From: Escherichia coli
Lineage (GTDB): Bacteria > Pseudomonadota > Gammaproteobacteria > Enterobacterales > Enterobacteriaceae
NCBI RefSeq assembly: GCF_041886205.1
Contig: NZ_CP169029.1
Direction: 5' to 3' (one strand)
DNA length: 64,000 bases
Shown here piece by piece: positions 50,701 through 53,700 of the stretch. The stretch's first letter is position 1; every line of letters begins with the position of its first letter. Made by a program: the position numbers.

Positions 50701-53700
50701 CTGGTACTCAACCGCCACATTGTGGGATTCCAGCGCCGCCAGAAGGGAAGGGTGTTCATCCTGGCACAGCAGTTGTGTGCCAGTGATGCGCAGGGTAACG
50801 CGGGCCATCAGAGCTGGAAGTTACTCAAATCGTCGGTGTCCACTTCCGCGTCAATCTGCCCGACCAGATAAGAACTGACTTCCACTTCCTGCGGAGCAAC
50901 CTGCACGTTATCAGACACCAGCCAGGTGTTGATCCACGGGATCGGGTTGGAGCGCGTCTGGAACGGCAGATCCAAACCGACCGCCTGCATACGGATATTG
51001 GTGATGTATTCAACGTACTGGCAGAGAATGTCTTTATTCAGACCAATCATCGAACCGTCACGGAACAGATAATCCGCCCAGTCTTTCTCTTGCTGTGCCG
51101 CCTGGACAAACAGGTCATAGCACTCCTGCTTACACTCTTCGGCAATTTCCGCCATCTCTGGATCATCCGCGCCGCTGCGCAGCAGATTCAGCATATGCTG
51201 AGTACCGGTCAGGTGCAGGGCTTCGTCGCGGGCAATCAGGCGAATAATCTTGGCGTTACCTTCCATCAGTTCGCGTTCTGCAAAGGCAAAGGAACAAGCA
51301 AAGCTGACGTAGAAACGAATCGCTTCCAGCGCGTTAACGCTCATCAGGCAGAGATACAGTTTTTTCTTCAGCTCGCGCAGGCTAACGGTCACGGTTTTAC
51401 CGTTAACAGTGTGAGTGCCTTCGCCCAGCAGATGCCAGTAGCTGGTCATTTCGATCAGCTCATCGTAATAGCTGGAGATCCCTTCTGCACGTTTTTGGAT
51501 CTGCTCGTTGGTGACGATATCGTCAAACACAACAGACGGATCGTTAACGATATTACGAATGATATGAGTATAGGAACGGGAATGAATCGTTTCTGAGAAC
51601 GCCCAGGTTTCGACCCAGGTTTCCAGTTCCGGAATAGAAATAAGCGGCAATAGCGCCACGTTCGGGCTACGACCCTGAATGGAATCCAGCAGCGTCTGAT
51701 ATTTCAGGTTGCTGATAAAGATGTGTTTTTCGTGCTCCGGCAGCGCCTGGTAATCGATACGGTCGCGGGAGACGTCAACTTCTTCCGGACGCCAGAAGAA
51801 AGAGAGCTGCTTTTCGATCAGCTTTTCGAAGATGTCATATTTTTGCTGATCGTAGCGGGCCACGTTGACCGGCTGACCAAAGAACATCGGTTCTTTGAGC
51901 TGATCATTTTTCGTCTGTGAAAAGGTGGTATATGCCATGAGTGTGTCCTGTTGGGAGTTTAATGCCGGATAAGGCATTTTACGCCGCATCCTGTGCCTGA
52001 TGCGACGCTGGCGCGTCTTATCAGGCCTACAAACCGAGCCGTAGGCCGGATAAGGCGTTCACACCGCATCCGGCATCTCAATATCAGATCTTACATGCGC
52101 CGCTTTCGCAGCCATCGTCCTGGATTGACGGCACCAGATCGTCTTGTGCGTCTTCAGCGCCGTCACGGGTGTTCTGATAATACAGCGTTTTGACCCCGAA
52201 TTTGTAGGCGGTGAGCAGGTCTTTCAGCAACTGCTGCATCGGCACTTTTCCTGACGGGAAGCGTGACGGATCGTAGTTGGTGTTGGCAGAGATCGACTGA
52301 TCGATAAATTTCTGCATGATACCCACCAGTTGCAGATAACCATCGTTACCCGGCATTTCCCACAGCAGCTCATAGGCGTCGTGCAGGTGCTCGTAGTCCG
52401 GCACCACCTGGCGCAAAATACCGTCTTTCGACGCTTTGATGCTGACGTAACCGCGCGGCGGTTCAATACCGTTAGTGGCGTTAGAGATCTGCGAAGAAGT
52501 CTCGGACGGCATCAGGGCAGAAAGCGTGGAGTTACGCAGACCGTGCGTTTTGATTGACTCCCGCAGTGCTTCCCAGTCGTAATGCAGCGGCTCATTAGCG
52601 ATGGCATCCAGATCTTTCTTATAGGTATCGATCGGCAGGATCCCTTTCGCGTAAGTGGTTTCGTTAAACCACGGGCACGCGCCTTGCTCTTTCGCCAGCT
52701 CGTTAGACGCTTTCAGCAGGTAATACTGAATCGCTTCGAAGGTTTTATGCGTCAGGTTGTTGGCGCTGCCGTCGGAGTAGCGTTTACCGTGCTTCGCCAG
52801 GTAGTAAGCGAAGTTGATCACACCAATACCCAGCGTCCGACGCCCCATCGCTCCACGTTTGGCGGCCGGGATCGGGTAATCCTGATAATCCAGCAGCGCG
52901 TCAAGTGCACGAACCGCCAGAATCGCCAGCTCTTCCAGTTCATCCAGGCTATTAATTGCGCCCAGGTTGAAAGCAGACAGCGTACACAGCGCAATTTCAC
53001 CATTCTCGTCGTTAACGTCGTTCAGCGGTTTGGTCGGCAGGGCAATTTCCAGGCACAGGTTAGACTGGCGCACTGGTGCGATGGCCGGATCAAACGGGCT
53101 ATGGGTATTGCAGTGGTCAACGTTCTGAATATAGATACGGCCCGTTGACGCACGTTCCTGCATCATCAGGGAGAACAGCTCAACCGCTTTCACACGCTGC
53201 TTACGGATGCTGTCGTCTTTCTCATATTTGGTGTACAGGCGTTCAAACTCTTCCTGATCGGCGAAGAATGCGTCGTACAGCCCCGGTACGTCGGACGGGC
53301 TGAACAGGGTGATATCTTCACCTTTCAGCAGGCGGGTATACATCAGTTTGTTGATCTGTACCCCGTAGTCCATATGGCGCACGCGGTTGCCTTCCACACC
53401 ACGGTTGTTTTTCAACACCAGCAGGCTTTCCACTTCCAGATGCCACATTGGGTAGAACAGCGTTGCCGCACCGCCGCGCACGCCGCCCTGAGAGCAGGAT
53501 TTCACCGCAGTCTGGAAATGTTTGTAGAACGGAATGCAGCCGGTATGGAACGCTTCGCCACCGCGAATCGGGCTACCCAGCGCACGAATACGCCCGGCGT
53601 TGATGCCGATCCCGGCACGCTGGGAAACATATTTCACAATCGCGCTGGAGGTGGCGTTGATGGAATCCAGGCTGTCGCCGCACTCGATCAGTACGCAGGA

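Follow-up and report, generated by a model that had tools for sequence, protein, structure and literature searches.

The 145-bp spacer between nrdA and nrdB in the window (the whole stretch of 64,000 nucleotides of Escherichia coli DNA analysed here) is very probably a BIME-2, with one y-z2 pair of REP units followed by a truncated y remnant, in a common natural allele of an element whose number of 88-bp modules varies. Both the element and its copy-number polymorphism are standard for BIME-2. This kind of feature is already known, and the identical form is present in public genomes. Copy-number polymorphism of BIME-2 elements was described by Bachellier et al. (1997, Genetics 145:551), as cited in PMC3333891.

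The K-12 form of this spacer has two modules. We found that module number is one of several kinds of variation at this site. Approximately one third of E. coli strains have no REP in the nrdA-nrdB spacer at all.

Anatomy of the spacer and REP units in the window

The window is a segment of the E. coli chromosome that runs from nuoG to yfaA, reversed relative to MG1655. It is 99.95% identical to E. coli LHM10-1 (NZ_CP037903.1). The two sequences are not colinear from base 1. We considered a rearrangement as the cause and ruled it out, as the offset is explained by a 777-bp IS1 insertion in glpQ that is present in LHM10-1 and absent from the window.

The coordinates of nrdA and nrdB (Table 1) bear out the 145-bp spacer described in an initial annotation of this sequence. 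The nrdB open reading frame can be extended 17 codons upstream, into the REP remnant. We rejected this extension as the start because the Shine-Dalgarno sequence and the annotated start both fit position 51938. There was no match to a promoter consensus in 51939-52083, and no intrinsic (Rho-independent) terminator, defined as a GC-rich hairpin with a U-tract, on either strand of that interval. Rfam at gathering thresholds gave no match in the spacer; its sole match in the window was the nuoG motif at 69-111. The BoxC motif had 0 matches across the window.

Three REP types are recognized in E. coli: y (35 nt), z1 (29 nt) and z2 (37 nt), with a conserved GTAG 5' of the palindrome (PMC8266576). 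In mRNA sense, the spacer reads TGA, 8 nt, inverted y REP, 10 nt, z2 REP, 2 nt (CA), y remnant, and a 21-nt flank. The y and z2 units are 35 and 37 nt long, as expected for their types, and both have the GTAG head. The y unit is an inverted REP in the nrdAB mRNA, with the 3' end ...CCTAC. The REP arms contain an AA/GC mismatch bulge (GCCGGAT-AA-GGCG / C(A/G)CC-GC-ATCCGGC). The y unit of the window is further marked by a strain-specific substitution, C to T in mRNA sense, with which the mRNA hairpin retains a G.U pair. The initial annotation had counted three REP units in this spacer. Two of these, y and z2, are full units, but the third is a truncated remnant. It has no GTAG head, and one arm is missing its outer 3 nt; a short hairpin is still possible.

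The first REP stem (GCCGG) starts 9 nt past the nrdA stop, as judged from the sequence, the decomposition into units and the RNA fold. At the other end of the spacer, the 3' flank with the nrdB Shine-Dalgarno sequence was conserved across every spacer allele and genus examined.

BIME-2 elements consist of y and z2 units with short linkers, and their copy number varies between strains; the long L linker with an IHF site is the defining mark of BIME-1 and is missing from BIME-2 (PMC3333891). The spacer has alternating y and z2 units with short linkers and no long L linker with an IHF site. All REP units of the window are between annotated genes, and they belong to a high-copy family: for queries containing the spacer, the median number of matches in an E. 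coli genome was 11 to 34.

Table 1. Positions of nrdA, nrdB, the parts of their spacer, and the other REP units of the window
Feature	Position	Strand	Description
Single variant REP	7118..7154	+	nuoL-nuoM gap; GGTCGGAT...ATCCGAC, also given as GTAGGTCGGATAAG...GCATCCGACA
Single degenerate z2-like REP	50506..50542	+	Between convergent inaA and yfaE
nrdB CDS	50808..51938	-	376 aa; ATG at 51938-51936
nrdA-nrdB spacer	51939-52083		145 bp
nrdB Shine-Dalgarno	51946..51949	-	AGGA, inside the 3' flank ACAGGACACA[C/T]TC
Truncated y remnant	51960..51991	+	32 nt, mRNA sense GGATGCGGCGTAAAATGCCTTATCCGGCATTA; without the GTAG/CTAC tetranucleotide
z2 REP	51994..52030	-	37 nt, GTAGGCCTGATAAGACGCGCCAGCGTCGCATCAGGCA; REP orientation in mRNA; GTAG at 52030-52027
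l-type linker	52031..52040		10 nt, mRNA sense GGCTCGGTTT; between y and z2; 10 or 11 nt in other alleles
y REP	52041..52075	+	35 nt, GTAGGCCGGATAAGGCGTTCACACCGCATCCGGCA; GTAG head on the + strand, 52041-52044
5' flank	52076..52083	-	8 nt, mRNA sense TATTGAGA; between nrdA stop and first REP unit
nrdA CDS	52084..54369	-	Stop TGA at 52086-52084; from the ORF list and the LHM10-1 RefSeq annotation
y + z2 pair	58839-58873 (y), 58885-58922 (z2)		z2 is 38 nt; between convergent yfaL and ubiG

We found that REP units were concentrated in four gaps of the window. The REP head motif GTAGGCCKGATAAG, with up to 2 mismatches, had 7 matches in the window compared with 0.41 expected, and none of 100 shuffled sequences reached 7. 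Six of the 7 matches were in the nrdA-nrdB, yfaL-ubiG, inaA-yfaE and nuoL-nuoM gaps. A strict arm pattern and blastn-short found no additional REPs in the window beyond these four gaps. We located all of the units that had been placed outside the nrdA-nrdB spacer: two after yfaL (58839-58922), and those between inaA and yfaE and between nuoL and nuoM. The heading of the initial annotation spoke of three intergenic gaps, but its own text listed four, and four is the correct number.

Among these four gaps, only the nrdA-nrdB spacer differed in length from K-12. The yfaL-ubiG gap (127 bp) and the nuoL-nuoM gap (163 bp) are identical in sequence to those of MG1655. The inaA-yfaE gap has 4 substitutions relative to MG1655 and the same length, 53 bp.

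Spacer alleles and changes in module number

We found that the window and K-12 spacers differ by exactly one module. The MG1655 spacer is at 2347151-2347383 (nrdA ends at 2347150 and nrdB starts at 2347384). It is 233 bp, close to the approximately 230 bp stated in the initial annotation, and alignment showed that the two spacers differ in length (145 vs 233 bp). Removing 88 bp from the MG1655 spacer and changing two positions of its first y unit (C21T and A24G) gives the window spacer. These 88 bp make up one complete BIME-2 module, consisting of an s linker (5), a y unit (35), an l linker (11) and a z2 unit (37). The window thus has one y-z2 pair and the remnant, and K-12 has two pairs and the remnant (three vs five units). 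The deletion breakpoint can be placed anywhere in a 40-nt stretch (TTT plus z2) that is identical in both K-12 repeats. The suggestion that the length difference corresponds to BIME unit copy number was therefore right. Our comparison of alleles supports the view that this spacer varies in several ways, of which copy number is just one.

There were at least six length classes of the nrdA-nrdB spacer across E. coli. We searched 5,426 complete E. coli genomes and then retrieved representative loci. The most frequent class (approximately 36%) was the two-module form of 233/234 bp. The 145/146-bp class, with one module and the remnant, made up approximately 21%. Two classes were each present in approximately 5%: a 226-bp form that has two modules with an 81-bp period and an internal unit that is a remnant/y hybrid, and a 189-bp form that is a y-z1-y-z1 array without z2, an atypical BIME. 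Two other forms were rare: a 321-bp form with three modules (ESDR8), and a 241-bp form that differs from the K-12 form by an 8-bp duplication within a linker. The last class, of 88 bp, has a BoxC triplex motif and no REP, and was found in 31% of genomes (1,685/5,425), an exact count by coverage. The forms not given a percentage above together made up approximately 2%, a sample estimate.

All frequencies except that of BoxC are from match spans in three pooled systematic samples of ranked hits (88 non-BoxC genomes). The percentages are estimates from a biased collection of genomes, and are sufficient to call the window allele common. Query coverage was unusable for counting the 233-bp class, as overlapping BLAST pieces let a 145-bp allele cover 100% of the K-12 query.

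Three of these alleles form a copy-number series, with one (window), two (MG1655) and three (ESDR8) modules. In the 321-bp allele, module 2 and module 3 do not differ from each other and even have the same linker variant, and judged by sequence this is the signature of a recent in-register (register-shifted) duplication. The internal hybrid unit of the 226-bp allele is what would be expected from an exchange between a y unit and the remnant.

The short spacer of the window could in principle be an artefact of assembly. Short reads can collapse tandem repeats of 88 bp with 40-nt identities, so that two modules are assembled as one. However, the 145/146-bp architecture is present in approximately 1/5 of the RefSeq complete genomes sampled and in three other Escherichia lineages. 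In addition, LHM10-1, whose complete genome is independent of the window, matches the 545-bp interval around the spacer at 100% identity. We regard an artefact as extremely improbable.

Comparison with other Escherichia suggests which form is older. In a scan of one genome per species, we recovered three Escherichia lineages other than E. coli, with nrdA and nrdB 92-95% identical to those of the window. (The genomes recovered did not include E. albertii, E. fergusonii or type-strain E. coli.) The spacers in these lineages were 145, 145 and 153 bp, all of the three-unit form. The third unit of E. whittamii retains a full 5' (inner) arm at the position of the remnant, and the E. coli remnant can be derived from this unit by a 7-nt deletion between GGATGC repeats. 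Because all three of these lineages carry the three-unit form, it is likely that this form, seen in the window, is close to the ancestral one and that the longer K-12 array arose by expansion.

We hold this polarity with only moderate confidence, because of the K-12 junction, the markers of the 146-bp allele, and the two species that were not recovered. The K-12 internal junction (GGCT-CCGGG-TGCC) could not be derived by one exchange from either the 145-bp three-unit allele or the E. whittamii allele, and nothing in the three-unit allele is an evident source for the s linker CCGGG of K-12. The only markers present in the 146-bp allele (L006) are those of K-12 "module 2", so some three-unit alleles may be secondary deletions.

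The window allele itself might be such a secondary contraction, in which a K-12-like array of two modules lost 88 bp within the 40-nt identical z2 stretch. A loss of this kind would account for a window spacer that equals MG1655 minus 88 bp with breakpoints in the 40-nt identity and just 2 substitutions. It would also fit the 146-bp allele, whose markers are exactly those of module 2 in the 234-bp allele (L007), as after loss of module 1, and the canonical K-12 s linker, which is without an evident source in the three-unit allele. In contrast, all three of the other species-level Escherichia lineages have three units, and G24 of the y unit is common to the window, Escherichia sp. MOD1-EC7003 and another 145-bp allele of E. 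coli, and is not found in K-12 module 1. We consider contraction of the window allele possible, but somewhat unlikely.

Modules would be gained or lost by register-shifted exchange or replication slippage between near-identical repeats, and the 40 nt of perfect identity between the two K-12 repeats would be the substrate for exchange. A different possibility is that changes in copy number are catalysed by TnpA-REP (RAYT), which would cleave single-stranded DNA at CT beside REPs that have a GTAG head. In vitro, BIMEs are cleaved and recombined by TnpA-REP, and this has been proposed to explain copy-number variation (PMC3333891); the y and z2 units of the window spacer keep the essential GTAG (PMC8266576). 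However, the junction of the 226-bp allele is inside an 11-nt stretch common to y and the GTAG-less remnant, which argues for homology rather than site-specific cleavage. Furthermore, the 321-bp allele is a clean in-register duplication, and the window is without a tnpA-REP gene. A role for TnpA-REP at this spacer is improbable. Homology-driven slippage or unequal exchange is most simply invoked for the patterns seen in the alleles.

RNA structure and the REP and BoxC forms of the spacer

The spacer RNA is predicted to be highly structured. The calculated folding energy was -67.3 kcal/mol (z = -4.0 vs shuffled controls) for the window and -118.4 kcal/mol (z = -5.8 vs shuffled controls) for K-12. 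In the minimum-free-energy fold of the window spacer, the first y unit pairs with the remnant, rather than the three units forming local hairpins. Fold predictions of this kind leave the in vivo structure of the spacer RNA uncertain.

The spacer is without a U-tract terminator and without a promoter consensus, so nrdB is expected to be read through from nrdA. The units would fold into stable hairpins without a U-tract in the nrdAB mRNA. Ribosome stalling is reported for REPs that lie no more than 15 nt from a stop codon, with nrdAB named as a reported case (PMC12306157). The same source attributes to Liang, Rudd and Deutscher (2015) the finding that stop-proximal REPs lower synthesis of the upstream protein via ribosome stalling and trans-translation. 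The first stem in the window, 9 nt after the nrdA TGA, is within this distance. REPs have also been described as stabilisers of mRNA and partial Rho-dependent terminators (bioRxiv 10.64898/2026.03.23.713779). By analogy with these systems, the element would most likely modulate NrdA output by stalling ribosomes at termination. It would most likely also modulate the balance of nrdA and nrdB transcript, via a barrier to 3' exonucleases or partial Rho-dependent termination.

The number of modules is probably of little consequence. Alleles with one, two and three modules do not differ in the first hairpin or in the flank with the nrdB ribosome-binding site, and copy number itself is therefore expected to be close to neutral. 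An effect is more likely for the choice between REP and BoxC, as the hairpin of the BoxC allele begins approximately 29 nt after the nrdA stop. BoxC, or TMECO, is a motif that forms an intrastrand triplex, with the consensus CCCTCNCCC-N3-6-GGGNGAGGG-N3-GGGNGAGGG (PMC4666352). The 88-bp allele matches this consensus exactly.

We found REP and BoxC spacers in other Enterobacteriaceae as well. Our scan recovered 18 species, with a mild ascertainment bias from a search pattern that fixed 12 nt at the 3' end of the spacer. Each of the 18 species had nrdA-nrdB spacers with either the genus's own REP type or two inverted BoxC motifs. REP-type spacers were found in Escherichia, Enterobacter asburiae, Leclercia, Silvania and Phytobacter diazotrophicus. 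They always had an inverted REP, with 6-8 nt from the nrdA stop to the unit, so that in Enterobacter, Leclercia, Silvania and Phytobacter, too, the REP is less than 15 nt from the stop. Two-BoxC spacers were found in Pseudocitrobacter, Enterobacter genomosp. O, an Enterobacter MAG, E. mori in part, Huaxiibacter and Phytobacter ursingii. Both states are thus found within E. coli (69% REP vs 31% BoxC), within Enterobacter and within Phytobacter. Aligned to the two-BoxC spacers, the 88-bp allele of E. coli has a remnant of the first box followed by a 34-bp gap; beyond the gap come the linker between the boxes, common to these spacers, an intact second box and a 3' flank that is also common to them.

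In two comparisons between genera, the spacer was more conserved than the adjacent coding sequence. Enterobacter genomosp. O and Phytobacter ursingii were 97.1% identical in the spacer vs 83.2% in the adjacent 600 bp of nrdA. For Phytobacter diazotrophicus and a Leclercia sp., the values were 97.5% and 89.2%, respectively. This conservation could reflect selection on the spacer, short-patch horizontal exchange, or concerted evolution of the repeat families.

We raise the speculative and rather doubtful idea, from these sequence comparisons, that the nrdA-nrdB spacer might be a long-lived two-state regulatory site across Enterobacteriaceae, with a REP hairpin 7-9 nt after the stop in one state and a first BoxC hairpin at least 18 nt after the stop in the other. 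If selection were responsible, the REP and BoxC states would be alternative settings of the NrdA:NrdB ratio. If the two-state reading were true, BIME copy number would be a minor variation within one state. The REP/BoxC pattern between genera is the sole part of this analysis that is not ordinary, and it comes from outside the window.

For the window itself, our results are of small importance, a textbook length polymorphism of a BIME-2. For E. coli as a species, there are at least six alleles, and the K-12 nrdAB spacer that is cited to illustrate REP-mediated translational control is just one of them. Given this diversity and the approximately 1/3 of strains without any REP in the spacer, conclusions from K-12 on REP control of ribonucleotide reductase may not hold species-wide. 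The natural alleles are a ready series for testing the effects of REP number, type and absence on the NrdA:NrdB balance.

Comparison with known systems

The BoxC (TMECO) element (PMC4666352) occupies the same spacer in other strains. It belongs to a different repeat family and is absent from the window.

The nrdAB spacer is similar to the stop-proximal REPs of Liang, Rudd and Deutscher (2015), as cited in PMC12306157, in that its first stem is 9 nt after the nrdA TGA. Approximately 31% of E. coli genomes have no REP at this position, so the stop-proximal mechanism is not universal for nrdA.

REP325 of the yjdMN operon is likewise a REP array between co-transcribed genes, with no U-tract (bioRxiv 10.64898/2026.03.23.713779). 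It has been proposed to stabilise the upstream mRNA and partly terminate transcription before the downstream gene (bioRxiv 10.64898/2026.03.23.713779). REP325 has 12 hairpins and is partially Rho-dependent solely as the full array, whereas the nrdAB element has 3 to 7 units. In contrast to the REP325 case, the gene downstream of the nrdAB element, nrdB, is essential and must be expressed.

A further comparison is with BIME-2 elements in general. Gyrase binding and cleavage are known for this family from Espeli and Boccard (1997), as cited in PMC3333891. Like other members, the window spacer has alternating y (35 nt) and z2 (37 nt) units, short linkers, an extragenic position and a module number that varies between strains. 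It differs in having one full y-z2 pair with a headless y remnant, the minimal form of the array.

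Spacer types across genera

We found that the nrdA-nrdB spacers of other Enterobacteriaceae (L014-L031) alternate between genera in type, either REP or BoxC, and that Enterobacter and Phytobacter each include both types. Spacers of the same type are approximately 97% identical between genera; the 3' ends of nrdA in those genera are 83-89% identical. The 88-bp allele of E. coli (L005, positions 301-388) is a degraded two-BoxC spacer.

Substitutions in REP units

The y-unit stem in the window carries a strain-specific C-to-T change at 52055 (spacer position 21, mRNA sense), which is also present in LHM10-1, the closest public genome. 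With this change, the hairpin of the nrdAB mRNA retains a G.U pair, but a C.A mismatch arises if the opposite DNA strand folds. In the inaA-yfaE gap, the lone REP and its MG1655 counterpart differ at 4 positions, three of them adjacent (50531-50533, CAC in the window and TGT in K-12) and the other at 50545. The canonical REP arm, GCGTCGCATC, is nearer to the REP in the window than to that of MG1655.

Reading frames at the spacer and an RNA motif

The REP remnant in the window contains the final codons and the stop codon of the antisense small ORF yoaM. Read from the same start, the BoxC allele would give a peptide of at least 34 amino acids, and both the y-z1 allele and E. whittamii would give one of 5. 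Because an identical start yields such different products elsewhere, the yoaM peptide is not conserved across spacer alleles. On the other strand, the mechanical ORF of nrdB is extended upstream to 393 amino acids, compared to 376 from the annotated start at 51938, which is accompanied by a Shine-Dalgarno sequence. The nuoG motif was the only Rfam family in the window to pass its gathering score.

Coordinates and contents of features in the window
Feature	Position	Strand	Remarks
nuoG RNA motif (Rfam RF01748)	69-111	+	50.3 bits; within nuoG
glpQ-inaA interval	about 45800-49850		frameshifted ORF, LysR-family regulator, MFS transporter (48581-49771)
yoaM (MG1655 b4779)	51937-51972	+	11 aa; antisense; present
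nrdB upstream extension	51939-51989	-	17 codons; in-frame ATG within REP remnant

The glpQ region in LHM10-1 and K-12

Apart from an IS1 insertion in glpQ, the window and LHM10-1 are 99.95% identical. The insertion (777 bp; 12511-13272 of L010, the LHM10-1 locus) splits glpQ in LHM10-1, and the gene is intact at the matching point in the window (about 45280). K-12 appears to have a deletion between glpQ and inaA, because this interval in MG1655 is 462 bp and holds only the yfaH pseudogene, compared to approximately 4 kb in the window.
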